Both the position numbers and the translations under genes were made by a program. A stretch of DNA of 24,000 bases from Enterococcus rotai (GTDB lineage Bacteria > Bacillota > Bacilli > Lactobacillales > Enterococcaceae): contig NZ_CP013655.1 of assembly GCF_001465345.1 (NCBI RefSeq), positions 2,313,741-2,337,740 on the forward strand, in the 5' to 3' direction. Below, in pieces: positions 4,964 through 21,400 of the stretch (positions are counted from its first letter, which is position 1; every line of letters starts with the position of its first letter). The notes under the pieces were generated by a model. That model did not search any database and was not told the DNA's origin. It saw only the letters and a list, made by a program, of their open reading frames with translations.

Positions 4964-5032
4964 TAAGTATATATACTATTATAAAAACTAAGTCGTTAGA
5001 CGTTTACTTTTTAATTATAGGAGGAAAAAACG

Positions 5033-5320: not shown

Positions 5321-5340
5321 GCTGAAAGGAGGAATAAAGT

Positions 5341-5697: not shown

Positions 5698-7087
5698 TAT
5701 GTACCTCGGTCAAGCGAGAAGCCAAGCATCCAGTGTTAAAAGTGCGTGTAGCCAATTAGCACAAGGCTATACGTCTTTGATGCAAAGTAATCAACAGTTT
5801 ATGAGCGCAGGCGAATTATCAAGTAAAGGCTATGACTCTGCCAAAGAATTCTTTGCGGCAGTGATCCAACCTTTAGTTCAAGGTGCCGAAGTAGGCGCAG
5901 AGATGACAGCAGAAGCTTGTCAAAAATTTGTGGATCAATATACATCTGAGGTCGATAGTATTGATTTGAAGTCAGATGACTTAGAAAGACGAATCCGACA
6001 AATCAATACGTCGATCCTGAATATGGAGAGTATTAATCGAGGCTTGCCAAAGCTTCCGACTGGAACGAATCCGTTGGAACAAGCCAATCGGCGGATTATT
6101 GAATCGTTAGAGACGACGAAACGTGATTTAGAGCAGAAGTTAGAGAAATTAATGACGTTTAATGGGACATCGCCTGCTATTTTTGATGGAGTGAATAGTT
6201 TTTATTCGACATTGTCGCAAGGCTTGCAGCAGGCGAATAGTGGGTTTAATCCTGCGACTGGGACGTTTTCGCTTCCGAAAGGGAAAGCGTTGGATTGGAC
6301 GAAAACAGTACAAACAGCTTACCAAAAAGCAAATCAGAAAAAGCTAGATAGTTTAATGAAATTACCTTATTCAATAGAAAATGCAATTAAGGTCTATGAG
6401 ATAGCTCAAAAAGATCCATCAATGAGGTTAGACGAAAAAGCGATTAAATGGTTTAGAGATCATAAAGATGATCTACAAGGATTATTTGTTGATTTTAGTA
6501 TGTCGACAATAGAAGAAACACTTAAACATAATGGAGATGATCTTGCACTTTCTCTCGGTTTGATGTTTGGGACATTATACAAAAATGCACCATATGGTTC
6601 ATGGATGGGCGCAGTAAACCAAGGATTAACAGCTGGTATTACAAGTTCTGCTAATAGTATGTTCAATGCCACGACAGACTTTTTAGGGTCTACAGCCAAA
6701 GCAACTTCACTTGGCTTAGGAATAGGAACCGTATTGGGTCTTGCCTCTGGCGATTCATTTGGTCAAGCTTTTGCAAGTTCTGCTGTTACGACTGGAGTTT
6801 CTTTAGGAATAAATAGTTTAGTTACAACAGGTTTTGCAGTAGCAGCTGTGGCGACACCTGTTGGCTGGGCCGCTGTTGGAGTTGCTGCTGTCGTCACTGT
6901 TGCAACCACTATTGCATTCAATAAAAACTTTTTAGGAATGAAAGATTTAGCAAAAAATACGGGGAATTTGATCGATGATGGTTTGGACTGGACTGGAAAA
7001 AAAGTAAATAATATTGGGCAAGGGATTAAGCAGGTACGCAGTGCGGTTGATGGTGCTTGGAATTCTCTAACCAATTGGAGTTGGTGA
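5687..7087 (+). CDS. LXG-domain polymorphic toxin (T7SSb substrate) with hydrophobic glycine-zipper-like C-terminal domain
   Basis: The N-terminus MSIDMYLGQARSQ...LSSKGYDSAKEFFAAVIQPLVQG resembles LXG domains (compare B. subtilis YobL ...FSGKGASNIKAFYHDHVG). The C-terminal ~115 aa is Gly/Ala/Val/Thr-rich (GLGIGTVLGLASG...AVAAVATPVGWAAVGVAAVVTVATTIAF). The gene is translationally coupled to the preceding one. Confidence 0.8.
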   Translation: MSIDMYLGQARSQASSVKSACSQLAQGYTSLMQSNQQFMSAGELSSKGYDSAKEFFAAVIQPLVQGAEVGAEMTAEACQKFVDQYTSEVDSIDLKSDDLERRIRQINTSILNMESINRGLPKLPTGTNPLEQANRRIIESLETTKRDLEQKLEKLMTFNGTSPAIFDGVNSFYSTLSQGLQQANSGFNPATGTFSLPKGKALDWTKTVQTAYQKANQKKLDSLMKLPYSIENAIKVYEIAQKDPSMRLDEKAIKWFRDHKDDLQGLFVDFSMSTIEETLKHNGDDLALSLGLMFGTLYKNAPYGSWMGAVNQGLTAGITSSANSMFNATTDFLGSTAKATSLGLGIGTVLGLASGDSFGQAFASSAVTTGVSLGINSLVTTGFAVAAVATPVGWAAVGVAAVVTVATTIAFNKNFLGMKDLAKNTGNLIDDGLDWTGKKVNNIGQGIKQVRSAVDGAWNSLTNWSW

Positions 7088-7089
7088 AA

Positions 7090-7722
7090 ATGATCGAAAA
7101 AACTACAAATAAGCGATATAAACATTTTAATTATAAAAATGAAAGTATTTTACTAGATATGGATAGTAATAAAATAACTTGGTTTTTCCCTTTTTTAGTT
7201 TGGTTTCTTCCTGTTAAAGGATATAGAAATACTCCCCTACCATCTGATAAGACAGGGGAGAAAAAAACAAAAGGTGGTATAGTTTTTTCAATACCGATTT
7301 TATCAATCATTCTTATCCGTCTGACAGATGGTGGTTTTGGTGATTTATCAAAACTTTCAAATTATCGAGAAATAATTATGGTTATACTGTTTAGTTCAAT
7401 GATTTTGGTCTATTTAATTCGCTATTTTTGGAGATACAAAAAAAATAACTTACTTATGCAAGATAAAGAAATAGTTTACTTGAAATTTAGCTTTAATAAA
7501 GGAATTATAGGAAAGTACGAATATATCTATAAAGTCTTTATTCTTACAATAGTTTGTTACGGGATTGTTATTTTTTTTAGTAGCTACTTTATAAATGACT
7601 ATCCTAATATTATTATTTTACCGCTCATTCTTCTTGTGGAATACTTTTTATTGATTATTAATACTACAATTGCACATCCAGAGAAAGACTGTACATTTGT
7701 TGTTACTAAAGAAAAAAAATAA
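7090..7722 (+). CDS. Polytopic membrane protein, immunity candidate, paralog 1 (DUF443/TsaI-like by analogy)
   Basis: I prefer ATG 7090 over the ORF-track start at 7057. GGAG at 7077-7080 lies 9 nt upstream, and the ATG follows the toxin stop (7085-7087) by 2 nt. N-terminal motif TNKRYKHFNYKNESILLDMDSNKITWFFPFLVWFLPVKGY, then 4-5 hydrophobic helices. Confidence 0.75.
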   Translation: MIEKTTNKRYKHFNYKNESILLDMDSNKITWFFPFLVWFLPVKGYRNTPLPSDKTGEKKTKGGIVFSIPILSIILIRLTDGGFGDLSKLSNYREIIMVILFSSMILVYLIRYFWRYKKNNLLMQDKEIVYLKFSFNKGIIGKYEYIYKVFILTIVCYGIVIFFSSYFINDYPNIIILPLILLVEYFLLIINTTIAHPEKDCTFVVTKEKK

Positions 7723-7758
7723 ATATGAAATCACTGACATTTGGAATACTCTAATTGA

Positions 7759-8376
7759 TTGGGGTTGTTAATAATATTTAGTGGAAGATTTAAAGAAGTA
7801 GAGGTAAATAACAAAAAAATGTTAGTAGATTTAGATACATCCAAACTGGTATGGATAGTACCTTGGGCTGTATGGTTATTTCCGAAAAATGCTTATTGTT
7901 ATGATGCTGTAAAAGAAGATAATAAACAAAAAAAAAAGAGTTCGTCAAAAGGATTGATTGTATTAACTAGTTCAATTTTAGCCAGTGCTTTGATTAGGAA
8001 TACGGATAAAAGTTTTGGTGAATTGTCTTTCTTACAAGGGCATCCTATTGAGCTATTCCTTTGCCTTATAGTTGTTACAGCAGCTGTTTTTTACTACAGA
8101 TGGTATAGTTCAAATCGTGAGTTAAAAAGACTTAGTGATATTAAAAAATATGAAATAGTAGTGTCAAAAAAAACTAGTGGACTGATGAGCCAATTGTTAA
8201 AAGTATGTGTAGGAATCTTTATATCAATTGTAGCGTTGTATTTCTTTGGAAGTATCTTTATTTTTAAAGGAAATATTTTAGGATTAGGCGTATATTACTT
8301 TTTTTTGATAAATATTTTGTTTAGAAACTATAGTGAAAAAATTCCTGAAACTATACATTTATCTCTAAAAAAATAA
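7759..8376 (+). CDS. Polytopic membrane protein, immunity-family paralog 2 (start codon uncertain, possibly decaying)
   Basis: It shares the family motif (GRFKEVEVNNKKMLVDLDTSKLVWIVPWAVWLFPKNAY). The position equivalent to the family start codon is ATA (7774-7776). The only upstream in-frame starts are TTG 7759 and 7765, and neither has an SD. Confidence 0.5.
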   Translation: MGLLIIFSGRFKEVEVNNKKMLVDLDTSKLVWIVPWAVWLFPKNAYCYDAVKEDNKQKKKSSSKGLIVLTSSILASALIRNTDKSFGELSFLQGHPIELFLCLIVVTAAVFYYRWYSSNRELKRLSDIKKYEIVVSKKTSGLMSQLLKVCVGIFISIVALYFFGSIFIFKGNILGLGVYYFFLINILFRNYSEKIPETIHLSLKK

Positions 8377-8406
8377 AACCTGTGAGATTGTTTGGAGCTG
8401 GTGAAT

Positions 8407-9045
8407 GTGATAGTAAAAACCGAAAATAAACGTTATAAGCAATTGACCTATAATGGTCAAAAAATACTATTAGATATGGATAGCAACAAATTAACTTGGT
8501 TATTCCCTTTCTTAGTCTGGTTTTTCCCAGTTAAAGGATATATGAACGAAGAACTGCCTATTTTTAAAGAAAGTAATTCAAAAGGAAAATCATCTGGAGC
8601 AATTATAATATCTTCGTCTATTTTAGCAAGTGTTTTGATTAGAATGACGAATAAAGGATTTGGTGATCTCAGGGGATTTTCAAATCCACAATTAGTTGCA
8701 GGAACAGTATTATTTTGTTCTATGGTAATAGTTATACTTATTCGCTATTTTTATAGATACAGAAAAAATCACGTGTTACTTTCGAATGAAAAAGTTGTTT
8801 TAATTAGATTTAAATTTATGGATGGTTTTAAGAGCAAATATAACTATATTGGGAAAGTGTTACTAGTTGTCATTTTTTGTTATGCAGTTGTGTTCTATTT
8901 TAGTATTACTTTTTTAACGTCTTATCTTAATATTATCCTTATCCCAGTTATATGTATGGTTGAATATCTAATCTCAATTGCTAACACAACGATTGAGCCA
9001 CCAGAAACGGATGTAGAATTGTTGATTGAAATAAAAGATGAATAG
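8407..9045 (+). CDS. Polytopic membrane protein, immunity candidate, paralog 3
   Basis: I prefer GTG 8407 (GGAG at 8394-8397, 9 nt upstream), the same geometry as paralog 1; the ORF track starts at TTG 8392. It is closest to paralog 1: ENKRYKQLTYNGQKILLDMDSNKLTWLFPFLVWFFPVKGY. Confidence 0.7.
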   Translation: MIVKTENKRYKQLTYNGQKILLDMDSNKLTWLFPFLVWFFPVKGYMNEELPIFKESNSKGKSSGAIIISSSILASVLIRMTNKGFGDLRGFSNPQLVAGTVLFCSMVIVILIRYFYRYRKNHVLLSNEKVVLIRFKFMDGFKSKYNYIGKVLLVVIFCYAVVFYFSITFLTSYLNIILIPVICMVEYLISIANTTIEPPETDVELLIEIKDE

Positions 9046-9069
9046 AAATTAAAACAGGGGGAACAAAGT

Positions 9070-9375
9070 ATGCAGACATTAGGAACAATCTTATATTTAA
9101 AAGATGGACGAGCTAAAGTAATGATAATAAATAGAGGACCTATCGTGGAAAAAGAAGGGATATCATTTTTATATGATTACGCGGGTTGCGTGTATCCCAT
9201 CGGAATGAATCCAGAACAAGTTTTATATTTTAATGAAGAGAATATCGATAAAGTTTTATTTGAAGGATATCGTGATGAAGATGAACAACGTTTTGAAGAA
9301 CTTTATAAAAAATCTGTTGAAGATTTAGGAGATTCTGTGATGAAAGGATTGCCTAATTTAAATCTTAAAAGCTAA
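9070..9375 (+). CDS. DUF4176-like small protein (recurrent T7SSb/LXG-locus accessory protein)
   Basis: GGGGG RBS lies 8 nt upstream. The 101-aa protein reads LGTILYLKDGRAKVMIINRGPIV...YDYAGCVYPIGMNPEQVLYFNEENIDKVLFEGY, which matches my memory of the DUF4176 pattern (YP.G......FF....I). Confidence 0.6.
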   Translation: MQTLGTILYLKDGRAKVMIINRGPIVEKEGISFLYDYAGCVYPIGMNPEQVLYFNEENIDKVLFEGYRDEDEQRFEELYKKSVEDLGDSVMKGLPNLNLKS

Positions 9376-9442
9376 ATAAAGTGCTCATCTTATATGTAAT
9401 GGAAAGGGAAAATAGCGGTATAGTAGGGCTATATGTTGAGAT

Positions 9443-10075
9443 ATGATGAAAGTTTATGAATCTACAAATAAAAGGTACAAACTAGCTGAACTAGATACAA
9501 ACTATTATTTAATTGATATGGATAGCAATATCTTGGCTTATTTTCTCCCTACTTTAGTTTGGTTCTTCCCTTTTAGAGCAGTTGAGATAGATAAAGGAAT
9601 GTTTAATAAGCTAGTGTCTAATGGTCAAAAAGAGTATGGTATTATGGCTACTGTTGCTATATCGATGTTTGTTGGAAGACCAGTTTACAAACTATCGACT
9701 ATTTTTTTTCAAGAGCTTGATGTTACTTCTGAACTAGATAAACGTGCAATTTATTTACTGATAACATTTGGCTGTTTGCTTATTTTTAGATCTATTATTA
9801 TGTTCTACAATAAGCATAAGCTTAGAAAAGTATTATTTGGAGTAGGTTACAATGTAACAATTGAGATTGAGAAAGAGAGTATTTCTACATATTACAAGAA
9901 GCATAGTATTATTCGATTGATTTTGATAGTTATGATTGCAGTAGGGATAATCTATATAACGATTGTTTATCTGTTTGATTTCATTGTAGTTTTTATTTTA
10001 AGTGTACTTATTTTTATATTTATGAATAGAAGTTATCTATTTCCTTACGGTAGTCGTTTTCATATAAAAGACTAA
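9443..10075 (+). CDS. Polytopic membrane protein, immunity-family paralog 4
   Basis: STNKRYKLAELDTNYYLIDMDSNILAYFLPTLVWFFPFRA followed by hydrophobic helices. The RBS is weak. Confidence 0.65.
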   Translation: MMKVYESTNKRYKLAELDTNYYLIDMDSNILAYFLPTLVWFFPFRAVEIDKGMFNKLVSNGQKEYGIMATVAISMFVGRPVYKLSTIFFQELDVTSELDKRAIYLLITFGCLLIFRSIIMFYNKHKLRKVLFGVGYNVTIEIEKESISTYYKKHSIIRLILIVMIAVGIIYITIVYLFDFIVVFILSVLIFIFMNRSYLFPYGSRFHIKD

Positions 10076-10198
10076 GAGATTGGAAGAATTAAACGTACAA
10101 ATAAGAGTCAATAACTTTATGGTTGTTGACTCTTCCTATATACACGGTACAGACGATTAGACTTCTCCAAAACTAAAGTAAAACAATATTAAAATGGA

Positions 10199-10915
10199 TT
10201 GGATGTGATAAAGCTGGAGTTTACCGCTGCAAAACCTCTGTATAATAACCATCGTTATAATGTAATACATTCTCAATCAAACTACTATCTAATTGACAAA
10301 GATAGTTCATTCTTAGGTTATTTCTTTTTCGGATTAAATTGGCTAATGCCACAAAAAGCGTACATCTTAAATAAAAGCCAAGCTGACGATTTGCTAGCTC
10401 ATCGAGTTGAAACTAAAAATAGAAAAGTGTTAAGCAGCATTTTAATAGTGCTAATGATTTTAATTTTTAATATAGTATTACCCAAGTTATTAACTCTTTT
10501 TTATGCTTCAACAAGTATAGAAAATAGCCGAATTATTGAAATTGGAAATACAGTTATGATGATTCCGCCAAGTCGGTACATATTTATGCTGTTACTTATA
10601 ACACTATTTCCTGCTTTGATAATTCGAGTATTCTGGTCTTTTCAATCAAAGAAATCCATGCTGAAAATAATTAAATATGATGAATTGTCTGTTACTCAAA
10701 TTAAGGTGAGACCAGGTTCGTTAGTTGACACTTTAAAAAAATTAGGTGTGTACTTTATGTTCCTATCATTAGTGATTATAGCGGGATTTTTGCTTGTGAT
10801 AACGGAAGGCTATTGGATTATCTCTTTATGTTTGGTGATGTTGTTTTTATTATTTCTATTAACCAATCATCTATCAATAAATACAGGGAAATACAAAATA
10901 TATCAAAAGAGATAA
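10199..10915 (+). CDS. Polytopic membrane protein, divergent immunity-family paralog 5
   Basis: The start is TTG 10199 or GTG 10205. NNHRYNVIHSQSNYYLIDKDSSFLGYFFFGLNWLMPQKAY keeps the family pattern, and multiple TM helices follow. Confidence 0.6.
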   Translation: MDVIKLEFTAAKPLYNNHRYNVIHSQSNYYLIDKDSSFLGYFFFGLNWLMPQKAYILNKSQADDLLAHRVETKNRKVLSSILIVLMILIFNIVLPKLLTLFYASTSIENSRIIEIGNTVMMIPPSRYIFMLLLITLFPALIIRVFWSFQSKKSMLKIIKYDELSVTQIKVRPGSLVDTLKKLGVYFMFLSLVIIAGFLLVITEGYWIISLCLVMLFLLFLLTNHLSINTGKYKIYQKR

Positions 10916-11052
10916 CCGATCAATAGCTATTGATAGACATATTTGTCGCATTTGGAGAATGTTCTCGAGTTAAGGAGTGAGGAGCTAAAATGTGGAAAAG
11001 ATATGTTGCTGTATATAATGGTGAAGCAGGGGAAAAGAGTATATTTTTAGAT
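10912..11052 (+). repeat. Right copy of the ~135-bp direct repeat (partner at 4704-4837)
   Basis: It spans the last codons of paralog 5, the intergenic region with its RBS, and the first 21 codons of 10990..11553. It is collinear with 4704-4837. Confidence 0.8.
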
Positions 11053-11553
11053 ACAGTAACAAAAAAGTTAGTAGTAGTTGAAATTGAGATGACTTCTTAT
11101 AGATCAACGATATTGTCAGGATTTTTAGGAGTGACTATTTATTATGTATTTGGGAATGTACTTTTTAAATCTTCTTTAAGTCCTGTTACTTTAATAGCAC
11201 TAATTTTATTTATTGGTTGTTTAGGTGGTGCTTTCTTTAATTTGTTAATAAATAAGATTGCTAATAGTGATAAAAATAAGTTGAATTATTTAACTAACGT
11301 TAGCGAAGATGAACTAAAAGCGTATCTTGTTAAAGGAAGAAAACAAATGAGGAAGAATTTTCTACTGATTATTTTTCTTTTTGTTATGGTAATACTCTCG
11401 TTGCTTCCAATTTATTTTAAGGAATATTCGCTATTGTTGCTTCTTGCTTCAATTTTTTTCACAACACTGTTTATATTCTTTATATGTATTGTTTCACCAG
11501 TTAAGAGGATAAAGGCTTATAGATATATTGAAAAAATGAAGTGTCTATCATAA
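10990..11553 (+). CDS. Four-TM membrane protein, distant member or neighbour of the immunity family
   Basis: AAGGAGTGAGGAG RBS. The N-terminus WKRYVAVYNGEAGEKSIFLDTVTKKL echoes the KRY..Y.....LD....K pattern of the paralogs. Four hydrophobic helices follow. Confidence 0.65.
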   Translation: MWKRYVAVYNGEAGEKSIFLDTVTKKLVVVEIEMTSYRSTILSGFLGVTIYYVFGNVLFKSSLSPVTLIALILFIGCLGGAFFNLLINKIANSDKNKLNYLTNVSEDELKAYLVKGRKQMRKNFLLIIFLFVMVILSLLPIYFKEYSLLLLLASIFFTTLFIFFICIVSPVKRIKAYRYIEKMKCLS

Positions 11554-11599
11554 AAAATGATAATAATTAACAATCTAGAATTAGAAAGAAGGGTTTGAG

Positions 11600-13597
11600 A
11601 TGGGGATTTATAAACATGATACAGCTCCTTTTTGTTATGAAAATATGGATAGATTTAAGTTCACGAGGAGTGAATTAAATGTGTGTTCAAAACTTATAGA
11701 TGTAATGTCCAAAGGGGAAGGGCTTTATGTATTTTCTGGTATGAGAGGTACAGGGAAAACAAGTATAAAAGAATTAGCTTTTTTAAAGATGGAAAAATCT
11801 AGTTTAACTGACTCAGAAAAGATAATAAAAATAAATATTCCTTTTTATAGTGATGATAATAATTTAAGAATACTTATTATTAAGGCACTTTATGATTACT
11901 TTAGTAAGAAGTCTGACATTAGTATACTTGAAAAATTAAAAGATTTACTATTGCTTTTTGAGAATCAAATAAAGGAAAGTAATATTTTTTCTCAAAGTGA
12001 TAAAAATGAAACGGATGTAGAGACAAAAACCTCATTTTTTAATAGTATTTATAATAAGTTTGGCTTGAGATTTTTAGGTAATTGGATTCCATTACAAGTA
12101 AAAAGTGAATTTAGTAATTCTAAAACAGACTCCTTAGAAAATTCCGAAAAGCAAAAATTTTCTAGGGAGGAACAAGTTGCAAAGGAGTTTAGCAAAGAAA
12201 TTACAATTCAAGAGAAGCATGTTCAACTAGAAGAATTTATGAGAAGTATATTGAAAAAGTATAGAATAGTTTTAATTATTGATGAGATAGATAAACTTGA
12301 ACATAGTAAGGTTGAAAAAATAATTTTACAAAATAAGGGAATGTTTTTCAATAAAAATTTGGTGACACTACTTATTACTGATTTATCTAGTGGGCTTTAT
12401 TTGGAAGAGCACTCAAAAGAATATGTAAGTGATTTTATATATTTAAATAACCTAACATTTGAGGAGTATGCATTAAAAGCAATTAATTTAGAATTAGAAC
12501 GAGGATATAGGTTATATAGTTTGATAGATGGTTATTATCAAACATGCGGAAATAATAGAAAGATGATTAACTCGTTAATTAATAGTAATGAAAAGTTTTC
12601 TCTTTCAAATTCATTGTCGCTATTTTATTTACATCATTCAAGTTATTTTGAAGGCTTGAAATATGAATACAAAGATATAGTTACTTTGTTTTATATAGAG
12701 TTTTTAGAACTCCTTTCCATACTTGAAGAACTTTCCTCAAATGAAATTTTTGAGTTTTTAGAAGATTTTATTTTGAGATACAGGCTTGATAACTTGAAAA
12801 TAAAATTAATTTTAGAAAAATTAATTTTAGAGTTAAAGAAGTGTTTTCATATTTATCCTTATATTTTTATGGAAGATATAAGTAGAAGTGTAACAAATTT
12901 TGAAAAAAATAAAACAATTATAGGATTACTAGAAAGTGTAGAATATAGGGTGTATGATCAATCATCTAAAATTTTCAAAAAAGCATTTCTTTATAATAAC
13001 TACAGGATATTTGAGAAAAATTATATAACTTTTCTTAAAGACTGGTCAAATGAAAAGCATGCCTATCTGGGGTCGGAAGCTGAACAAAAATTTTTGAATT
13101 ATTATTTAGAATGTTGTGGTTTGTTTATTGATGCAACAAATTTAGATTACTATAGTGCTAAATTAGAATTTATAATGCATCACAGTTTTAACAAAGAATC
13201 TAGTGCTGAGAAGGATATAGAAATCAATAAAAACGAGATTTTAGGAGTAATAGTTTTCTATCCATATTTTGAAGAGTTAGATGAAAATTATAAACCGTTG
13301 TATAATTGCTACATAATAAAAAGAAATTTTATGAATGAATTGATGGCATATTCGTATGTAGGTTATCCGGGATTAACTTCACATAAATCAAGTGATAGAA
13401 ATAAATTTATTCCATTTTTGAAAAAACAAGGAGTTCCGTATGTTGAAATTTCAAATGACTTTTTTAGTAAGAAAGAAAATTTTTGGTCTGTCGGTTTGGA
13501 GGATGAGTACGGTGATGAATTGGAGAAATTTATTGTTAATAAAACTAGACCGTATTTGAAAGACTGGTTGATTAAACTATGTGATAGAGTTTTCTAA
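11600..13597 (+). CDS. P-loop NTPase (AAA/Arch_ATPase-like N-terminal domain) with ~350-aa uncharacterised C-terminal region
   Basis: Walker A is GMRGTGKTS, preceded by the F.R.EL......L pattern. Walker B is IVLIIDEIDKL. A lid-like segment reads IYLNNLTFEEYALKAI. The gene is very AT-rich. There is no terminator between it and 10990..11553. Confidence 0.7.
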   Translation: MGIYKHDTAPFCYENMDRFKFTRSELNVCSKLIDVMSKGEGLYVFSGMRGTGKTSIKELAFLKMEKSSLTDSEKIIKINIPFYSDDNNLRILIIKALYDYFSKKSDISILEKLKDLLLLFENQIKESNIFSQSDKNETDVETKTSFFNSIYNKFGLRFLGNWIPLQVKSEFSNSKTDSLENSEKQKFSREEQVAKEFSKEITIQEKHVQLEEFMRSILKKYRIVLIIDEIDKLEHSKVEKIILQNKGMFFNKNLVTLLITDLSSGLYLEEHSKEYVSDFIYLNNLTFEEYALKAINLELERGYRLYSLIDGYYQTCGNNRKMINSLINSNEKFSLSNSLSLFYLHHSSYFEGLKYEYKDIVTLFYIEFLELLSILEELSSNEIFEFLEDFILRYRLDNLKIKLILEKLILELKKCFHIYPYIFMEDISRSVTNFEKNKTIIGLLESVEYRVYDQSSKIFKKAFLYNNYRIFEKNYITFLKDWSNEKHAYLGSEAEQKFLNYYLECCGLFIDATNLDYYSAKLEFIMHHSFNKESSAEKDIEINKNEILGVIVFYPYFEELDENYKPLYNCYIIKRNFMNELMAYSYVGYPGLTSHKSSDRNKFIPFLKKQGVPYVEISNDFFSKKENFWSVGLEDEYGDELEKFIVNKTRPYLKDWLIKLCDRVF

Positions 13598-13821
13598 ATA
13601 AGAATATAAGATAAAATATTGTGTGTAAGTTAAAATTATTTGAAGGAGCAGAAACTTTATATTCACGAGAGTAATCAAATATTTTTAGGAAAAAAGCTGA
13701 AAATGGAAAAATAGTTACACAATCTAGCAAGTTTTTACTATCAAATTTTAACTAACTGTACTTTATTCTTTTTTCGATGTATAATTTAACCAATTATTTA
13801 AAACATACTGGAGTGAAAAAA

Positions 13822-14550
13822 ATGACTGATGAAAAAAATATGAATCATAACAATGAAGAAATTATAGAAAAGGCAAAAAAATTTTTTAGAGAAATAATTG
13901 CTGAAAATCATGTGAAAAACACAGAGAAGCTAGAAAATATAAAGGAATTTAAAGTTAATCCATTTACTCATAAATATTTGGCAAACTTTTTGACGGGAAA
14001 TGATGACCCCAAAAGCTTGGCGAAAGCATTAATATATCCTAGAGTTTTGGGTACTTCAATTACCACATCATTTGGACAAAATTTACAAACTTTTGTCAAT
14101 ACTACACTTGAAGGATATGGGTCAACAACAACAGGAATGGATATTGAATTTATAGATAAATTAGACGGAAGAAAAAAATATTGCCAAATCAAAGCTGGAC
14201 CCCAAACAATAAATAAAGATGATGTTACAACTATAAGAAACCATTTTCGAGATGTTATTAATCTAGGTCGTACTAATGGTATTCCTATTGCAAATATGGA
14301 CTGTGTTGTAGGGGTTTTTTATGGAACTTATAATGATTTAAGCGCATTCTATAAGAATTTAGCTGAAGATTATACTGTATTAGCTGGAAAAGATTTTTGG
14401 TATCATTTAACTGGAGACGAGGACTTTTATAATAAGCTCACAGATGCAATTGGGGAAATAGCTAATGAATTTGATGGAACTGAGCTTTTAGAAAAAACCA
14501 TTAATCAGTTAGCGATGCAGTTGCAACAGGTTGATGGTATAGATGAATAA
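13822..14550 (+). CDS. Putative type II restriction endonuclease (PD-(D/E)XK-like)
   Basis: I prefer ATG 13822 (GGAG at 13810-13813) over the ORF-track start at 13777. That start lies inside a TATAAT box at 13780-13785. Candidate catalytic motif GMDIEFIDKLDGRKKYCQIKAG (D-x14-Q-x-K). The gene is convergent with a C5 methyltransferase and shares a terminator with it. A TdeIII/Eco47II-type family is only a guess. Confidence 0.55.
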   Translation: MTDEKNMNHNNEEIIEKAKKFFREIIAENHVKNTEKLENIKEFKVNPFTHKYLANFLTGNDDPKSLAKALIYPRVLGTSITTSFGQNLQTFVNTTLEGYGSTTTGMDIEFIDKLDGRKKYCQIKAGPQTINKDDVTTIRNHFRDVINLGRTNGIPIANMDCVVGVFYGTYNDLSAFYKNLAEDYTVLAGKDFWYHLTGDEDFYNKLTDAIGEIANEFDGTELLEKTINQLAMQLQQVDGIDE

Positions 14551-14556
14551 ATAGTA

Positions 14557-14597
14557 AAGAAGCAGTCATTTGTTGTAAATACAAAAGACTGCTTCTT
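14557..14597. terminator. Bidirectional terminator hairpin between the convergent R and M genes
   Basis: AAGAAGCAGTC (14557-14567) pairs with GACTGCTTCTT (14587-14597). An inner TTTGT/ACAAA pairing extends the stem. Confidence 0.7.
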
Positions 14598-14600
14598 ACT

Positions 14601-15935
14601 TTAAAATTGATTTAAGTAATCTATAACAGCCAGCCCCACATATTTAGCTAATTTAACGGGAACGGCATTCCCAATTTGCTTATATATACTTGTGACGCTT
14701 CCTTCGAACTTCCAAGAATCTGGAAAACTTTGAATCCTGGCATATTCTCTAACTTTGAATGGACGGGTTTCAGAGGGGTGGCAACGTTCTGTTTGTTTTT
14801 GACTAGGAGAAGTTGTTAAAGTTAGAGAAGGCTCATCCCAAGAAATTCTTCGAGCCATACCTCTTTTACCGCCACCAGAGTGATAAGAAGCACCCATGTA
14901 ATCTTTTGCAATATTTTCGGGAAGATTAACCCAGCAACCTCCTGGGGGAACTAATTCTAAAACTTTTTTTTTCTTTTCTGAATAGGGCGTTCCTTGACTA
15001 TCAGGTACATTTTTTAAAGCGTCTTTTAGTACGGGCTTTGTTGTTGAAATCTCTGGGAAAGCAAAAGGTTTCTTTTGCTTTTTAATCAGATCATTTCTGA
15101 TTCCAATTATTACAATGCGCTCTCTTTTTTGTGCAACATCGTAATTCCAAGCATTTAATACGTTCCAATATACTGTATAACCAGATTGTGAGAAGACATC
15201 AAGCATTGTCTCGAGAGTTCTACCCTCATCATGATTTACCAAACCTTTTACATTTTCGGCTATAAAAACTTTGGGAGTTAGCTCATTTAAAATTTGAGAA
15301 TATGGATAAAATAATGTTCCACGTATATCTTCTAGTCCATGTCTTTTACCAGCGTAACTAAAACTTTGACAAGGATACCCACCGGATAAAACATCTAACT
15401 CTTTATCAAGAGTGAATAATTCGTGATTTTTTATTCCATTATTTGCAATGTTTACAATATCCCCTTGAATCACATTCCAATGAGGTCGATTTTTCTTTAA
15501 AGTTTTACAAGCATCTTTATCTAATTCAATAGCACCTATCGAGTTAAGACCAGCTTCTTCTAATCCTAAAGAAAGTCCACCGGCACCGGCAAATGTTTCA
15601 AGAACTGTGTAATCTTTTTGAGGCGAAATATTTTTAACATCAGTATATCTATCCAATTTATATTCATATCTATTTATATTATTAGCAATAGATTCATCAG
15701 TAATTAATTCTAGCTGTTCCATGTGCTCACCAGTTTCTTCAATTATTAACTCCTTAAAAGGAATTTTTAACTCATTCATTAGATTTAGAACGTTTGTTTT
15801 TATAGGACAAAAGTCATCTGATAACATCTGTGAAAGTTGACTTTTGCTCATTCCAATTCGTTCAGCAAGCTCAGTTTGAGTAGCAATATTATTCTTTTTC
15901 ATAGCCAATTTTACTATATCTTTATTGATAAACAT
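14601..15935 (-). CDS. DNA (cytosine-5)-methyltransferase with N-terminal XRE-type helix-turn-helix domain
   Basis: Motif I TFAGAGGLSLG, motif IV GGYPCQSFSYAG, motif VI ENVKGL, motif VIII QKRERIVIIG, motif IX REYARIQSFPD, motif X GNAVPV. The N-terminal ~65 aa IATQTELAERIGMSKSQLSQMLS is a classic HTH. Confidence 0.92.
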   Translation of the reverse strand: MFINKDIVKLAMKKNNIATQTELAERIGMSKSQLSQMLSDDFCPIKTNVLNLMNELKIPFKELIIEETGEHMEQLELITDESIANNINRYEYKLDRYTDVKNISPQKDYTVLETFAGAGGLSLGLEEAGLNSIGAIELDKDACKTLKKNRPHWNVIQGDIVNIANNGIKNHELFTLDKELDVLSGGYPCQSFSYAGKRHGLEDIRGTLFYPYSQILNELTPKVFIAENVKGLVNHDEGRTLETMLDVFSQSGYTVYWNVLNAWNYDVAQKRERIVIIGIRNDLIKKQKKPFAFPEISTTKPVLKDALKNVPDSQGTPYSEKKKKVLELVPPGGCWVNLPENIAKDYMGASYHSGGGKRGMARRISWDEPSLTLTTSPSQKQTERCHPSETRPFKVREYARIQSFPDSWKFEGSVTSIYKQIGNAVPVKLAKYVGLAVIDYLNQF

Positions 15936-15979
15936 AGAAGATACCCCTTCGATAAGTTTAAAATATATTTAACAACCCA

Positions 15980-16008
15980 ATTATAATGGAGTTCAAATGC
16001 CAAGTCAA
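15980..16008 (-). promoter_or_regulatory. Sigma-A promoter of the methyltransferase gene
   Basis: The minus strand reads TTGACT, a 17-nt spacer, then TATAAT. A 5' UTR follows containing TTAAA-N5-TTTAA and a GAAGGGG RBS before the ATG at 15935. Confidence 0.6.
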
Positions 16009-16146
16009 CATTAAAGTTATAGTAGAGAATTATATAGTGTACTTTTTTTAAAATTTAATGTAATTCTATTTAAACTTTAGAGTTGTAAAAACGAACATTT
16101 AGACTGTATTATTTTTTTTAATGGGTTATACTAATAAATAGTATAA

Positions 16147-16947
16147 ATGAATAAGGAGTTGTTTATTATTATGGATAAATTAAAGATGAGGTTTAAAAAA
16201 AGTGTTAATGGAATAAGTTGGATCAATAAGAATTTTACTCCTGTTTTTAAACTTCTTTTTGGAGTCATGTCTTTATCACTTTTATTTCAAGCGAATAGCC
16301 TAGTACATAGTGGTAATATAGTAGCTAAAGAGATTGGACTACAGGCTAATGAAATTTCAGAAAAGCAATTAGAAGATACTGCTCCTTCCTTAAGTTTTAA
16401 TAGGAAAAGTTATGATGATGGAAATTTTTACTACGTTTTAAATAATGAACGAGGACACATGTCAAATGTAAGTTTTTATCAGTTTGATAGAATTAATTTT
16501 CATGCTAATAATAAACAATTTTCAGTTAATGCTGATGTAATGTCGAAAAATATATATAAAGGAAAAGCTAAAAAGAATCATTGGATATTTGATTCATCTT
16601 TAAAAAATTTTGATATTAATAAATTAATTGAGCAGTTAAATAAACAGTTAAATGAAAAACTTCAAACAAATGATTTTATGATTACAAGTACAAGTTACTA
16701 TTATGTCTCCTATAATGATTTTAGAAATGAAAAAAAATCAGAATATTATAGATTTAAAGACAAAGAAAGTGGAGAAGGAATTTATGATGAATATATGACT
16801 ATTCGAAATGATGAAATTGAAAATAATATCAAGAGATATTATACTAGTATATTCACTAGGCAAGAAACAAAATCTAGTGATGACGTATATAAAAATCAAG
16901 CTACAGTTTTATCAAATAGTATAATGAACTATTATAATATGGATTGA
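16147..16947 (+). CDS. Hypothetical membrane-anchored protein (Asn/Lys/Tyr-rich)
   Basis: The 266-aa ORF has an alternative start at ATG 16171, downstream of AAGGAG 16152-16157. There is one N-terminal hydrophobic segment (FTPVFKLLFGVMSLSLLF). I recognise no family. It is very AT-rich. Confidence 0.5.
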   Translation: MNKELFIIMDKLKMRFKKSVNGISWINKNFTPVFKLLFGVMSLSLLFQANSLVHSGNIVAKEIGLQANEISEKQLEDTAPSLSFNRKSYDDGNFYYVLNNERGHMSNVSFYQFDRINFHANNKQFSVNADVMSKNIYKGKAKKNHWIFDSSLKNFDINKLIEQLNKQLNEKLQTNDFMITSTSYYYVSYNDFRNEKKSEYYRFKDKESGEGIYDEYMTIRNDEIENNIKRYYTSIFTRQETKSSDDVYKNQATVLSNSIMNYYNMD

Positions 16948-16992
16948 CTATATGTAAGGAATACCAAATATGCTAGGTAGGCAATTTAATTC

Positions 16993-17020
16993 AGAGGATG
17001 GATCATCTCCATCCTCTTTT
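16993..17020. terminator. Rho-independent terminator between convergent genes
   Basis: AGAGGATGGA-tcatc-TCCATCCTCT followed by TTTT. It sits between the gene ending at 16947 (+) and the gene ending at 17035 (-). Confidence 0.75.
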
Positions 17021-17034
17021 ATAACATACGCAAT

Positions 17035-17343
17035 CTATTCCAAATTCATTTTCTTCCCCTCAAACCCAGTCTCAACCTTCTCAGCCCTAACCATCTCCAT
17101 CACCAATTCATCCCCCAACTCAATCAACCGATTATAATCCTCATAAAAAGCATGAAACATCTGCGCCCGCGCATAATACTCCTTCACAATCCGTTTCTTA
17201 TTAATCGGCCCAGACCGAAATTGAAAAAAATGATCCAAAATCGCCAAAGGCTCCTGCCAAGAAGCCATCTTTTCCATAAAATCCCGCAACTCAATAATAT
17301 CCTGATACGTAACCGCCTTTAAATTCTGTCCTTGTTTATCCAT
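17035..17343 (-). CDS. Hypothetical 102-aa protein
   Basis: I prefer the internal Met at 17343 (MDKQGQNLKAVTYQDIIELRDF...), preceded by AAGGAG 9 nt upstream. The longer ORF-track form (to 17559) runs through a hairpin, a terminator-like region and repeat-derived sequence. I recognise no family. Confidence 0.55.
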   Translation of the reverse strand: MDKQGQNLKAVTYQDIIELRDFMEKMASWQEPLAILDHFFQFRSGPINKKRIVKEYYARAQMFHAFYEDYNRLIELGDELVMEMVRAEKVETGFEGKKMNLE

Positions 17344-17552
17344 TCTCCTGATCTCCTTCAAATAAGGTGGAGAAAAGCCAATAAGCGCCAAACGAAACCC
17401 AAGCCCAAATCGAACTTCTCCCACCAATTTTTTCACTGAATTTCGTGCTTCAGCGATTCTTTCTATATACGCATTGACGAGACAAACCCATAACCCAGCG
17501 CTACAAAGGACTTTCAAAGCCTTGCTGTATTCATAACGCCTTCTCCCAGAGT

Positions 17553-17587
17553 AAAACAAAAAACGATACCGAACCTGTCAATACCGT
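17553..17587 (-). terminator. Minus-strand intrinsic terminator
   Basis: The minus strand reads ACGGTATTGA-caggt-TCGGTATCGT (10 bp including 3 G-U pairs that exist only in the minus-strand RNA), followed by TTTTTTGTTTT. Confidence 0.55.
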
Positions 17588-17660
17588 CATCAATCAGCCA
17601 AACCAACCCCACAATTCACTCCTAAACCACCCTTAATCCCAAGAAATTAACAAAACCAAC

Positions 17661-17689
17661 TAGAATTTCAAAAGAAAATTAGGTACAAT
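17661..17689 (+). promoter_or_regulatory. Candidate promoter of structured RNA copy 1
   Basis: TAGAAT, a 17-nt spacer, then TACAAT. The same geometry is conserved in copy 2 (TAGAAA-N17-TACAAT). The -35 is weak. Confidence 0.4.
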
Positions 17690-17695
17690 AAAGAA

Positions 17696-17805
17696 GCTAG
17701 TGCTTCGGTGCTAGCAAATTGGCAACTTGTATAGATAGCTAGTAGATGTCTATGCAAGGCTTCATCGTTCGGTTGCCGCCAAACGGTGAAGTGCCTTTTT
17801 GTTTT
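17696..17805 (+). ncRNA. Candidate ~110-nt structured small RNA, copy 1 (family not recognised)
   Basis: Hairpin GCUAGUGC-UUCG-GUGCUAGC, with a cUUCGg tetraloop and U-G/G-U pairs. An internal hairpin follows. The terminator stem is CUUCAUCGUU/AACGGUGAAG, with a U-G pair valid only for the + strand, followed by UUUUUGUUUU. The ends are estimates. Confidence 0.45.
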
Positions 17806-17863
17806 ATCCAGTTTTTCATCGATTCTTAAAACGTCCCTCCCTTCAAACATACTCGTAGGACAG

Positions 17864-17896
17864 AAAAAAACGGCATTGAGCAGATGCCCAATACCG
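17864..17896 (-). terminator. Minus-strand intrinsic terminator
   Basis: The minus strand reads CGGTATTGGGC-atct-GCTCAATGCCG (11-bp stem, two G-U pairs valid only on the minus strand), followed by TTTTTTT. Confidence 0.7.
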
Positions 17897-17959
17897 TCGA
17901 CAATAGTCTAATACCACATACACAACAACCAATCATACCAAGAAAAAGCAAAGATTCCC

Positions 17960-17988
17960 TAGAAATCCCAACCTATTTTAGGTACAAT
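17960..17988 (+). promoter_or_regulatory. Candidate promoter of structured RNA copy 2
   Basis: TAGAAA, a 17-nt spacer, then TACAAT, positionally equivalent to 17661-17689. Confidence 0.4.
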
Positions 17989-17994
17989 AAAGAA

Positions 17995-18105
17995 GCTAGT
18001 ACATGTTGCTAGCACTATTGGCAACTTGTTTGGACAGCTAGTACTGTCTTTACAAGGCTTCGATCGTAAGGTTGCCGCCGAACGATTGAAGTGCCAATTT
18101 TTATT
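17995..18105 (+). ncRNA. Candidate ~110-nt structured small RNA, copy 2
   Basis: It is collinear with copy 1 at a 299-bp period. The internal hairpin is GGACAG/CUGUCU, compared with AGAUA/UGUCU in copy 1. The terminator stem is CUUCGAUCGU/ACGAUUGAAG, with a G-U pair at the same column where copy 1 has U-G. AAUUUUUAUUUAU follows. Confidence 0.45.
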
Positions 18106-18354
18106 TATCTTTTTCAAATCCATTGACCTCAAATGATCAATGATCCTTATTTCTATCCTACACATTTTATTATACCGAAAGACACCCCCCACCGCAACGA
18201 AATTCGGCATTTCAACCCATTAAATAACACCAAAAACAGCGCCCTTATATATAAGATAAAATAACCAAAAAACTTTTTCCTCTTCAACCAATATTCACCC
18301 AAAAAAGCCCGAACTCCAGCTATGAGAAAAAACTAATAGTTCAGCCCGATATTT

Positions 18355-18383
18355 TTGAATTATTTATTTAGCCATACTATAGT
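18355..18383 (+). promoter_or_regulatory. Candidate sigma-A promoter of the large surface-protein gene
   Basis: TTGAAT, a 17-nt spacer, then TATAGT, 25 nt upstream of the ATG. The RBS is TAGGAGGT at 18391-18398. Confidence 0.55.
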
Positions 18384-18407
18384 AAAAGTATAGGAGGTAA
18401 GATATAA

Positions 18408-21400
18408 ATGAATAAAGTGCACAGAATTTCCCTGAATTATTTAGCCGTTTTGATGTTGGTGATTGCCAACTTGTTACCCGCCGCCAGTGTGTTTGCAGAA
18501 GGACTGACCAAACCAGATGAAAATACATTCGACTCAGAATCCTTATACATCAAAGCAGACACTAAGAAAAATGAAACGAACAACAAATTAATCGACGTAA
18601 ACTACGAAGTAACGAACAAAAGCGATCAACCAATCGATCACGTAGTTCTAAAACAAAAGAACCAAAATGACTCACCAGTAAAATTCGACGCAACAACCCT
18701 AAAAAGCGACGACCAATTGGTGGCGCCCTACGATCAAACGATCCAGTTTGACCAAAAAGAAAACCAAGGTGAGGGGACAGAACTAACCATCACCACGATC
18801 CAACCTCATACCACCAAACATCTGACAATCAGTGCCGAGCAAACAGACGAATCAATCTATCAGTTTGCTGTTGAAATAAATCAGGCAGATGAAAAAGTAG
18901 GAGACATCACACTAACACTGCCAAAGAATGAACAAGAACCGAGCAATACATCATTACAAGAAAAAGAATCTGACTCAGAAGTAGCAGAATCTCAATCAGA
19001 AGAGCCAACAACTGCTACACCAGAAGACTCAGTAGCAACGACCTCAGAAGAAAACAATCAAGCTGCACCAAGAGTACAACCAATCGGACCAAGAATTGCG
19101 CCAACGCCAGGCCGCGGCTTTGATAAACCAATTTATAAAAGCATCCACAAAGGAGAATTATTCTCTACAGGAAATACCAACTTAACCCCTGTAAACGAAG
19201 CGACAGCGAGCGCTTTTTTGAATACCAGAGCCCCAAGTAGTGGTCAAGCAATCAATAATTTTCAGTTGAAATTTGCGGATGTCGATGGCGATCCAACGAC
19301 CTATAACTCAAGTAAAGCCTACATCGATTTAGATGGTGCCAAAGAAGTCGCATGGGCAGGCTTATTTTGGAGTGCATCCCGTTTTAAAGGTCCAGCAACT
19401 GCGACGAATATGACCGATGATGAAATCAGCGCCCCCGTTCAATTAACCACGCCAAATGGAACAGTAACCCGTGTTGCGCCACAAAGATATCATCGAATTG
19501 ACCAAGATGCTACTAATCCTGGGCAAGGTTTTGGGTTTAATAATACGGGCTTTTCTAACTTTGCCGATGTGACCTCGATCCTTCAAGGGGATAAAAGTGC
19601 GACTGGTGCATACACATTAGCAGATATTCCGATGACCGATTTCCTACAAGGCAAATTTCAAAGTTTCAACTTCAGTGGTTGGAGTTTATTTATCGTGACC
19701 AAAGACCAAGCCAAACGATCCCGTGCCTTCAATGTCTATTATGGCGCTAGAGGGAACAAAGCTGGAACCAACAATGAATTTGTCATGAAAGACTTTTTAA
19801 CCTCTAAACAAGGAAAATTAAACCCAATCGTGACGTGGTTTACCGTTCAAGGCGATAAATTTTTCACAGGTGACAATGCTCAAATCCAAAATAGTGCAGG
19901 AACTTGGGTCAATATCAGCAATACAATCAACCCAGTCGGTAATGTCATGAACGGAACCGTTTCAGATAACGATCAACACATGGTGGATAAATATCCGGGT
20001 CAATTTAATCCTGGCTTTCCCAACTTTTTAGATATCGATGTCGATCGTTTGACCTTACCAGAAGGGATTATCACTAACAGTCAGAAACAAATCAACTTTA
20101 AAACAACCAGTAGCGGAGATGATTACTCAACCAACGCGATCGGTTTTTCAATCAATGCGGAAACACCCGAACTTGAAGTCACCAAAGAAATTATAAATCC
20201 AAAAGAAACGTATAAAATCGGGGACACCGTAACCTATCGTGTCCATCTCAAAAATACCAAAGAAAACACAGAAGCGGTCAACAGTCTTTCTAAAGACCAA
20301 TTAGATAGCCGTTTAGATTATGTACCCGACAGCTTATCCATCGTAAGTGGTCCAAATGCTGGCAATAAAACAGATGCCACAGGCGATGACCAGGGCGAAT
20401 ACACAGCAGCCGATCGTGCAATCACGTTTCGTGTAGGAGAGGGCGCCAACGCTACACAAGGCGGTAGCTACAAAGGAACGACCGCGGAAACAGTCTATGA
20501 ATTTCAAGCAAAAATCAATGATACAGCCAAAGGAGAAGAACTGATTCCAAATAGTGCCACATTCCAAGGGGTAGATTCTGCCACAAATACGATGATCGAG
20601 AACACATCCAATATCGTAGAGGTAAAAATCGCCCCAGAAGAACTGGTCGGCAAACTAGAAAGCTCAAAATCCGTCAACAATCAATCGCCAAAAATCGGCG
20701 ACGAAATAGAATACACGATTCAATTTAAAAACACCGTACCAAAGGGTATTTTAAACCAAGTAACCGTGACCGATACCTTACCAAAAGGCTTAACGTATAT
20801 TGAAGACAGCGTTACAAGTGCAGGGCCTGATCCCAAACCAACCGCATTAACGGTTGTCAATGGCCAAGTAACCGCTGAATACCCAAAAATCGCCGACACA
20901 GAAACACGCGCTATTTCCTTTAAAGTTCGTGTCAATGAAGAAGCGGTAGTCGGACAACCGATCATCAACAAAGCCAAAATCGATGATCACACGAATCCGC
21001 CCGATGAACCAGAAGTCCCAGTGACACCAACAGAAACACCAGGAGAATTAGAAAGTACCAAATCCGTCAACAATCAATCACCAAAAATTGGGGACGAAGT
21101 CGAATATCGTTTGTCTTTCCGTAATAAAATTCCGAATGGTGTCTTAAATCAAGTCACAGTGACGGATAATTTACCAAAAGGCATGACCTATGTCGACGGC
21201 AGTTTAACCAGCGAAGGCGCTGATCCGCAACCGACAAGTCTAACCATGACTGACGGCAAAGTCGTTGCAGAGTACCCAAAAATTCAAGATACCACAGTAC
21301 GAACCATTGTCTTTAAAGTCAAAGTCAATGAAGAAGCTATTGTTGGGCAAAAAATCGTAAACAAGATAACTGTAGATGACCATGTTAATCCGCCCGATGA

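Follow-up and report, generated by a model that had tools for sequence, protein, structure and literature searches.

Countertranscript-driven attenuation of plasmid replication genes operates in pT181 (RNAI/RNAII), pIP501 (RNAIII) and pAMbeta1, and in plasmid antisense systems specificity is set by hairpin loops. Tandem sibling small RNAs (sRNAs) are found as LhrC1-4 in Listeria, the csRNAs in Streptococcus and PrrF1/2 in Pseudomonas. In the prgQ/prgX system of pCF10, the two operons converge over 223 nucleotides (nt) and the Anti-Q RNA enhances termination in the prgQ 5' leader (PMC3181467). Here we analyse a locus of Enterococcus rotai (NZ_CP013655.1) that resembles each of these systems in part. 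It lies in a stretch of 24,000 nt, called the window below; coordinates are positions in this window and its strand is the + strand. At 17553-18110 the window carries two units of ~300 bp in tandem, each with a conserved promoter and a ~110-nt + strand RNA (P1 hairpin, three-way junction) closing in a U-run, and a minus-strand hairpin/U-tract is situated between the two units (Table 1). As judged from comparative sequence analysis, the locus is a real, conserved and strand-specific pair of structured sRNA genes with a conserved predicted antisense partner. The sRNA family is absent from Rfam and belongs in kind with cis-antisense and sibling sRNA systems, from which four traits set it apart: a leader with two terminators in tandem, a covarying helix that bridges a terminator, a fold built on a three-way junction, and a hypervariable tip matched between the copies.

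The locus had been singled out from the sequence of the window alone, as collinear repeats with a 299-bp period that each have their own promoter, and both parts of this original prediction held. Direct repeats at 299-bp spacing form three families (17660-17701/17959-18000, 17718-17744/18017-18043 and 17764-17785/18063-18084), and the whole units (17540-17860 versus 17845-18160) are 80% identical when aligned, with a peak over a core of ~120 nt. Homologous loci, designated here by L numbers, were collected by several routes. A scan of one genome per species with a pattern made from the RNA core gave 12 loci, in Enterococcus (moraviensis, plantarum, caccae, ureilyticus, ureasiticus, quebecensis, crotali, termitis, ikei and others) and in Vagococcus acidifermentans. 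A looser pattern applied to metagenomes yielded four further real loci and nine chance matches, and a scan of viral contigs with the pattern found no locus. Through relatives of the neighbouring protein, the set was extended to E. rotai, Melissococcus plutonius, Enterococcus sp. BWR-S5 and two metagenome lineages. It should be noted that in the first set GGCAACTTG, CAAGGCTTC and GGTTGCC are invariant because the search pattern required them, a bias of which the loci found later through the neighbouring protein are free. Among the collections searched, related RNAs are confined to an Enterococcus clade, Melissococcus plutonius and one Vagococcus. These results add a well-supported structured sRNA family to the Enterococcaceae, with hosts that include the honeybee pathogen M. 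plutonius.

The tandem pair was found in every Enterococcus locus of the genome scan and in four matching metagenome contigs, as well as in E. rotai, Melissococcus and BWR-S5; in L001 and L006 the second copy exists though the pattern missed it. Single copies occur only in Vagococcus, L036 and the L015/L016 lineage, where the RNA copy is degenerate (22.5 bits, at 3375-3504 on the minus strand). Each genome carries one locus, save for a weak extra match in E. crotali (36.5 bits), so the original concern that the block might be a dispersed repeat can be set aside. The E. crotali match (L037, 1000-1121, + strand) is a third, diverged copy without the P4 loop motif, in a separate locus 1.4 kb from a paralogue of p102, the protein described below. 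BLASTN of the locus detected no similarity in 72,556 plasmids and none in phage collections.

Table 1. Features of the locus (window coordinates; promoters, transcripts and terminators are predicted)
Feature	Position	Strand	Description or basis
sRNA copy 1 promoter	17661-17689	+	TAGAAT, 17 nt, TACAAT; read from sequence
sRNA copy 1	17695-17805	+	fold, consensus fold, covariance model (129.5 bits), pair counts
P1, copy 1	17696-17715	+	
Closing helix, copy 1	17721-17723 with 17793-17795	+	GGC with GCC
P3, copy 1	17726-17758	+	
P3 tip, copy 1	17734-17750	+	hypervariable; allele AGCUAGUA
P4, copy 1	17759-17792	+	loop GGUUGCCGCC at 17771-17780
U-run, copy 1	17796-17805	+	
sRNA copy 2 promoter	17960-17988	+	TAGAAA, 17 nt, TACAAT; promoter scan and conservation
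sRNA copy 2	17994-18106	+	fold, consensus fold, covariance model (124.1 bits), pair counts
P1, copy 2	17995-18013	+	
Closing helix, copy 2	18018-18023 with 18092-18097	+	
P3, copy 2	18025-18056	+	
P3 tip, copy 2	18033-18048	+	hypervariable; same allele AGCUAGUA
P4, copy 2	18057-18091	+	
U-run, copy 2	18098-18106	+	
Minus promoter	18169-18197	-	TTGCGG (18197-18192), 17 nt, TATAAT (18174-18169); points into copy 2
Long-range helix, 5' strand	18150-18161	-	GUAGGAUAGAAA; +1 to +12 of the predicted minus transcript
T2 hairpin	17864-17898	-	5' arm 17898-17886, loop AUCU, 3' arm 17881-17869, U7
Long-range helix, 3' strand	17855-17866	-	UUUCUGUCCUAC; end of the T2 U-tract plus 9 nt
Shine-Dalgarno-like motif	17835-17844	-	GAAGGGAGG, just 3' of T2; alignments, also in Melissococcus
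T1 hairpin	17553-17588	-	5' arm 17588-17578, 3' arm 17572-17562, U6GU4 tract
Leader, T1 to p102	17344-17552	-	invariant GTCAATG, possible own promoter, 5' untranslated region hairpin (17436-17453)
p102	17035-17343	-	102-amino-acid helical protein; open reading frame downstream of the predicted minus RNA
Module left edge	16990-17034		with hairpin (about 16994-17018); between p102 and the variable island
Right-hand element	18221-18266		TTAAATAAC, palindrome CTTATATATAAG (18244-18255), AAAATAAC; conservation profile, alignment

The promoters of the two sRNA copies are strongly conserved, with 0 of 74 positions of the sRNA promoter region changed in 11 related loci. A consensus promoter scan returned only the copy 2 promoter of the two. 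Nearly all aligned copies contain TTAGGTACAAT, with a few single-base variants; L036 has TTAGGTAAAAT, and the element is missing at the Vagococcus copy, both Melissococcus copies and BWR-S5 copy 2. Transcription probably starts at about 17695 and 17994, and with such starts the conserved AATAAAGAAG would be mostly promoter rather than RNA. Regarding the RNA itself, the + strand cores fold at -47.5 and -46.0 kcal/mol (z -5.5 and -6.7), as against -31.4 and -34.8 kcal/mol for the minus strand. RNAalifold and a covariance model gave one common fold made of P1, a three-way junction, P3, a long P4 and the U-run. The junction is closed by GGC/GCC, or by UUGGCA/UGCCAA in copy 2, the P4 loop is GGUUGNCGCC and the U-run begins immediately past the closing helix.

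Pairs were counted in 29 distinct sequences (33 pairs, 954 pair cells). Standard pairs occupy 96.6% of the cells, and both sides have changed in 17 of the 33 pairs, which supplies the covariation that the original prediction had named as a check. None of 500 shuffles matched any of the five measures applied, and in a control in which partners were slid by 1-3 columns pairing fell to 30-49%. When the homologues are aligned, G·U pairs fill about 15% of the pair cells, and the covariance model gives 124-134 bits for the + strand against no more than 20 bits for the minus strand. Together, the G·U pairs and the model scores identify the + strand as the folded strand, in agreement with an earlier argument from strand-specific G-U pairs in the window. 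The closing helix is invariant among all full-length copies; in the degenerate L015 copy, whose homology is weak, it reads UUAGUA/UACUAA, which fits two compensatory changes. The junction and loop bases UUGGCAAC, CAAGGCUUC and GGUUGNCGCC are near-invariant. Three CUAG cores per unit had also been pointed out; they are there in the window, the third being specific to its P3-tip allele.

A pseudoknot between the GGUUGCC loop and an upstream GGCAAC had been suggested as possible and was not adopted. The GGCAAC/GUUGCC pairing is complete in the first set (100% of cells) but without covariation, and it meets a G-G mismatch in five homologous copies with a GGUUGGCGCC/GAUUGGCGUC loop (Melissococcus, BWR-S5 and L036) and one additional mismatch in the second Melissococcus copy, while the nested apical stem gains one compensatory A-U in these same copies. 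Rfam 15 gave no match at gathering thresholds in the whole window, and at E<=10 only two chance-level matches were returned in 17300-18450, both outside the RNA, so that no known RNA family can be assigned, as had been stated before. Literature searches on the motifs of the RNA and on Enterococcus antisense and sibling sRNAs found nothing relevant.

On the opposite strand, a predicted promoter on the right of copy 2 has the consensus TTGCnn-17-TATA(A/C)T in most of the Enterococcus loci read and in Melissococcus. In most loci outside the window its boxes are TTGCGC, TTGCAG, TTGCTC, TTGCAA or TTGCGA with TATAAT or TATACT; the E. rotai/L019 lineage has the -10-like TATATA and Vagococcus has TTGACA-17-TACAAT. 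This promoter is absent from the promoter-scan list because its -35 box matches at 3 of 6 positions only. The transcript that we infer from it would run antisense through copy 2, past T2, and towards T1 and the p102 gene. T2 (13 pairs) and T1 (11 pairs) are the strongest terminator-like sites in 16800-18600, where a scan found 6 sites versus 1.2 expected, and they coincide with the minus-strand terminators first placed at 17864-17896 and 17553-17587. Each lies ~100 nt beyond an sRNA start and ahead of p102. The G·U pairs of T2 are valid on the minus strand only, its consensus fold has two compensatory pairs, in the rotai lineage, and its arms are largely rewritten yet complementary in BWR-S5 (GACGAUAGCAG/CUGCUAUCGUC), Melissococcus and L015. 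T1 is kept in 11 aligned loci and absent in BWR-S5 and L036; four loci have insertions of roughly 40-150 nt in its loop, with the base of the stem retained.

A helix of 12 bp on the minus strand spans T2. Across 12 genomes, its positions 6, 7 and 8 show double compensatory changes in four lineages, namely A-U to G-C (L001, L015), G-C to A-U (L015) and G-C to A-U (L013, L019), and 13 of its cells are G·U pairs that would be A-C mismatches on the + strand. The helix is kept in BWR-S5 and, with one mismatch, in Melissococcus. It is the strongest evidence at sequence level that a minus RNA exists, that it would start where predicted and that it would read through T2 on some occasions at least. The predicted antisense RNA would face two sibling RNAs, carry two hairpin/U-tract elements and enclose one of these within a covarying helix, an unusual architecture. 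The L015/L016 lineage retains T2, the antisense promoter and the long-range helix beside its single degenerate RNA copy, a pattern showing that the minus-strand elements can outlast the sRNA fold. Since the two strands of the helix are also 12-bp inverted repeats that flank unit 2, an invertible DNA segment was considered and rejected: order and orientation are constant wherever both copies and p102 were located, and neither the ten window open reading frames (ORFs) scanned (404-17343) nor the first 1000 amino acids (aa) of the adjoining surface protein showed a recombinase domain. Where the inverted repeats depart from perfect complementarity, the minus strand has G·U wobbles, as would suit an RNA helix.

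Several smaller elements accompany these features. The T1 U-tract has an A/U-only, invariant complementarity with the segment antisense to the copy 1 terminator tail. Just 3' of T2, GAA(A/G)GGAGG (17844-17835) is conserved, yet no conserved start codon stands at a workable distance; it could be a 5' stabiliser, presumably akin to the STAB-SD element of Bacillus, or a relic. A weaker GGGAGAAGG is found behind T1 (17536-17546, minus strand). Upstream of the minus promoter, the right-hand element, also present in E. rotai and BWR-S5, is possibly an operator. Between copy 2 and the minus promoter, L003, L004, L008 and L010 carry an insertion of 130-170 nt that forms a long nested hairpin, terminator-like on both strands; L013 and L019 have a shorter + strand terminator at that position.

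The non-coding character assigned to the blocks at the outset was upheld. The two ORFs over the repeat blocks use different frames, and among minus-strand ORFs of at least 10 aa preceded by a Shine-Dalgarno motif, none apart from p102 is shared across seven species. A 32-aa ORF upstream of T1 is interrupted by a stop in L003, the reading frames antisense to copy 1 change according to whether an A-run has 5 or 6 residues, and L007 has a frameshift. A descent of the inter-unit region from the start of p102 was also rejected, the local alignment score not being significant (30 versus 23 +/- 3.8 for shuffles, of which 20 in 300 reach it).

The locus can now be set against the described systems. 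Like pCF10, it occurs in the same bacterial family and has convergent promoters, an sRNA predicted to be antisense to the opposing 5' leader, and an intrinsic terminator in a leader of a few hundred nt, past the complementary region (PMC3181467). Unlike pCF10, the module is tandem-duplicated with two terminators in series, its sRNA ends at a terminator of its own and folds around a three-way junction, neither a peptide-pheromone gene nor a PrgX-like repressor accompanies the module, it has no BLASTN similarity to the plasmid collection and its loci lie on chromosome-scale contigs of up to 3.4 Mb. Moreover, Anti-Q enhances termination, whereas such an effect of the RNAs described here is a prediction. 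With pT181, pIP501 and pAMbeta1 the locus shares a predicted structured antisense RNA complementary to a leader that has a hairpin/U-tract before the gene, T2 and T1 both standing in the leader past the complementary region and ahead of p102. The loops of pT181-type RNAs are specificity determinants, which the variable P3 tip resembles. Unlike these plasmid systems, the locus has no replicon or conjugation context and no plasmid match, and the indication of antiterminator and terminator folds that exclude each other is weak in unit 2 and absent in unit 1. As in sibling sRNAs, two homologous ~110-nt RNAs lie adjacent, each with its own promoter and terminator; unlike them, the RNAs match no Rfam model, several such families being included there, they have no C-rich seed, and a conserved, predicted antisense unit overlies the genes.

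The output of the locus is something we infer. Our tentative preference, held with slightly less than even confidence, is that non-coding transcription units on the two strands form a conserved sense/antisense pair, in which the siblings act as countertranscripts on the long antisense leader. Each + strand gene would produce a ~110-nt RNA from its own promoter, with the closing helix, P4 hairpin and U-run serving as terminator. The minus RNA, starting on the right of copy 2, would traverse copy 2, T2, copy 1 and T1 towards p102, and its leader domains, perfectly complementary to the sRNAs, would be paired by them, probably after a first contact through the variable P3 tip as a kissing loop. 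Such pairing would reduce the amount of leader that passes T2 and T1, by favouring termination and/or by cleavage of the duplex, and convergent transcription and duplex formation would reciprocally lower the free sRNA. The original prediction of sibling sRNAs or cis-antisense modules opposite the region upstream of p102 is supported by the conserved pair, the minus promoter, the covarying helix and the linkage of p102. If this reading is correct, a two-stage countertranscript attenuator would extend the plasmid and pCF10 mechanism to a chromosomal locus.

Fold tests of the leader gave mixed results. In leader folds that end before the 3' arm, the segment antisense to copy 2 (UGUCCAA..GUUG.CCAAUAGU) is base-paired with the T2 5' arm and the flank of that arm. 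This antiterminator-like duplex is better than shuffles for unit 2 in most species (z about -2). Several points count against the countertranscript reading. The corresponding duplex does not beat shuffles in unit 1 (z about 0) or in Vagococcus (z -1.2), and the T2 5' arm of BWR-S5 no longer resembles the sRNA motif. T2 and T1 appear in full-length minimum-energy folds both when the complementary segment is blocked and when it is free, so that thermodynamics alone yields no switch. A candidate promoter for p102 itself (TTAACA-18-TATACT in E. rotai, TTAAAG-16-TACAAT in L001) means that this gene need not rely on read-through, and the p102 relatives of E. faecalis and E. testudinis have no such RNA adjoining. 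A three-way junction with invariant junction and loop bases exceeds the needs of a plain countertranscript, a purely cis-antisense model does not itself demand the same P3 tip in both copies, and every transcript at the locus is a prediction. It is the mixed fold tests and the candidate p102 promoter that keep the countertranscript reading at the level given above.

The main rival is an explanation that we consider possible but somewhat unlikely: the siblings would act in trans on targets elsewhere, and the minus RNA would be an anti-sRNA, through sponging and interference, or a by-product stopped by T2 and T1. A conserved promoter and terminator for each copy, as in known sibling sRNAs, and a compact fold with invariant UUGGCAAC, CAAGGCUUC and GGUUGNCGCC would be expected of such RNAs, the presence of T2 and T1 in every full-length fold makes these terminators look constitutive, p102 may have its own promoter, and the Vagococcus copy adjoins a different gene. 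Part of that invariance, however, comes from the homologue search patterns, and the RNAs show neither a C-rich nor an anti-Shine-Dalgarno seed. No target emerged from the 5-24 kb around each locus, none of which contains a reverse complement of the P3 tip. The covarying helix across T2 speaks of selection on a minus RNA that reads through, which is not expected of a by-product.

The near-invariant junction and P4 loop amid covarying stems, as in aptamers and protein-binding RNAs, together with the tight linkage of p102 in five lineages, would also suit an RNA that mainly binds a protein or a ligand, as partner of p102 or as a sensor, with the antisense layout secondary. We regard this as improbable. 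In L009 the tip is completely changed while p102 has 4 differences in 309 nt and an identical protein, p102 is missing beside the Vagococcus copy, Rfam offers no matching riboswitch or protein-binding family, and the p102 model is of low confidence with no fold match.

A toxin-antitoxin or defence RNA module appears still more improbable. The convergent sense/antisense layout, the 5'-3' pairing in the longer RNA, the Shine-Dalgarno-like minus motif and the tandem occurrence recall type I par/Fst RNAI-RNAII, the minus-strand order of promoter, repeat, terminator, repeat, terminator and gene recalls a type III-like arrangement with p102 as toxin, and the adjoining islands hold restriction-modification, helicase-nuclease and toxin-immunity genes. 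A type I toxic peptide encoded on the minus strand was rejected, as no small ORF with a ribosome-binding site is shared across the seven species and frames vary between units, species and A-run lengths; unlike in par/Fst, the overlap covers the entire sRNA and not its ends only. A type III system such as ToxIN does not agree with a conserved fold on the strand opposite to p102, nor with a p102 that matches no PADLOC model or toxin family. Finally, a repeat without RNA function, either a duplicated intergenic segment or a mobile-repeat remnant, would account for a tandem duplication between stretches of variable DNA but can practically be dismissed, in view of the many compensatory changes, a conservation far above that of the adjacent leader and on par with coding sequence, the single locus per genome (apart from the weak E. 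crotali match) and the lack of any match in the plasmid, phage and viral collections.

The most variable part of the RNAs is the tip of P3. Compared with the window, the tips of other loci show 0 or 4-8 differences in 17 positions, as against 0-4 in the rest of each RNA and 0-3 in the flanks right beside the tip. Both copies switch jointly, with (0,0), (8,5), (7,6) or (4,4) differences, and the tip core is common to the two siblings of a genome but differs between close relatives, while the stems adjoining the tip retain copy-specific sequence. The cores are AGCUAGUA in the window, L018, L003 and L008; GCUCUUAA in L002, L004, L005, L017 and L025; U(A/U)ACGG in L009, L011 and L007; GGUCUA in L001; CUU(U)CGG in L006; AGUUGACU in L013; AGUGUUCGCUGUC in L019; AGUGACUGCUG in Melissococcus; and GUUACAGCUGU in BWR-S5. 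When partners were permuted among nine genomes, the observed sharing was reached in 0 of 20,000 permutations. The allele is independent of the flanks: L009, close to the window in p102, has another tip, and L003 and L008, with 27 and 18 p102 differences, have the tip of the window.

Two explanations remain for this sharing, repeated short-patch conversion or template switching on the one hand and selection for a shared recognition loop on the other; under the latter, each sRNA could first contact both antisense domains. Few sRNA loci show such matched tip variation, whichever of conversion and shared-specificity selection is its cause. A bolder proposal, which we judge unlikely, is that the P3 tip is a programmable specificity loop whose discrete alleles move between species independently of the flanks and are identical in both siblings and in the antisense domains. 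If so, the locus would be a chromosomal RNA-RNA recognition system with specificity groups, much like plasmid antisense RNAs with their incompatibility loops; placed beside a variable defence/toxin island, it might discriminate resident from incoming copies, or might gate expression of the neighbouring gene in an allele-specific manner.

The neighbouring p102 has no match in Pfam, NCBIfam, PADLOC or PDB sequences; its AlphaFold model has a predicted local distance difference test score of 63, and the best Foldseek match has E = 7. It has 48 remote relatives of about 100 aa. The gene is on the same side in all 11 Enterococcus loci of the genome scan, and likewise in E. rotai, Melissococcus, BWR-S5 and the metagenome loci. 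In Vagococcus the RNA, antisense promoter and terminator are present and the downstream gene differs, encoding a membrane protein of 406 aa; the arrangement of minus promoter, sRNA antisense, terminator and a gene within ~200 nt is thus found in Enterococcus/Melissococcus (with p102) and in Vagococcus. In L036 only ~75 nt separate the single RNA gene from the start of p102, the two being on opposite strands; this gap holds no terminator, and a helix-turn-helix (HTH) gene is nearby. In E. faecalis (L032/L033) the p102 relative is divergent beside a small Xre-type HTH gene and lacks an RNA copy. The leader at 17344-17552 diverges by 6-24%, compared with 1-9% in the p102 coding sequence.

Homology has sharp edges. 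BLASTN homology starts at 16989-17009 in 11 loci (16989-16995 in 10 of the 11) and ends at about 18114 or at 18278-18299, unless the surface-protein gene is also shared. These edges delimit a module of ~1.3 kb, with its right edge at about 18278, composed of p102, leader, T1, copy 1, T2, copy 2, minus promoter and right-hand element. A low-G+C island particular to this genome makes up the left flank (about 7000-16989); between 5687 and 15935 are a 466-aa ORF without Pfam match, then five tandem DUF443 paralogues, as well as a KAP-family NTPase, an EcoO109I-type endonuclease and a C5 cytosine methylase with an N-terminal HTH. In other species the flanks hold methylases, PLD-helicase, Eco57I-helicase or LXG/DUF3958 genes. 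A WxL surface-protein cluster lies at 404-3826. On the right, a surface-protein gene occupies 18408 to the end of the window and runs off it; the protein exceeds 1860 aa and combines a signal peptide with no fewer than eight repeats of ~130 aa (DUF11/DUF7927). Within the signal-peptide codons of this gene, ATTGCCAACTTGTT (18462-18475) matches the sRNA segment ATTGGCAACTTGTT at 13 of 14 positions on the same strand, and is thus complementary to the predicted antisense RNA. L011 and L002 retain the match, and L008 has it with one additional change; a rough estimate of its chance expectation is ~0.01 per 24 kb.

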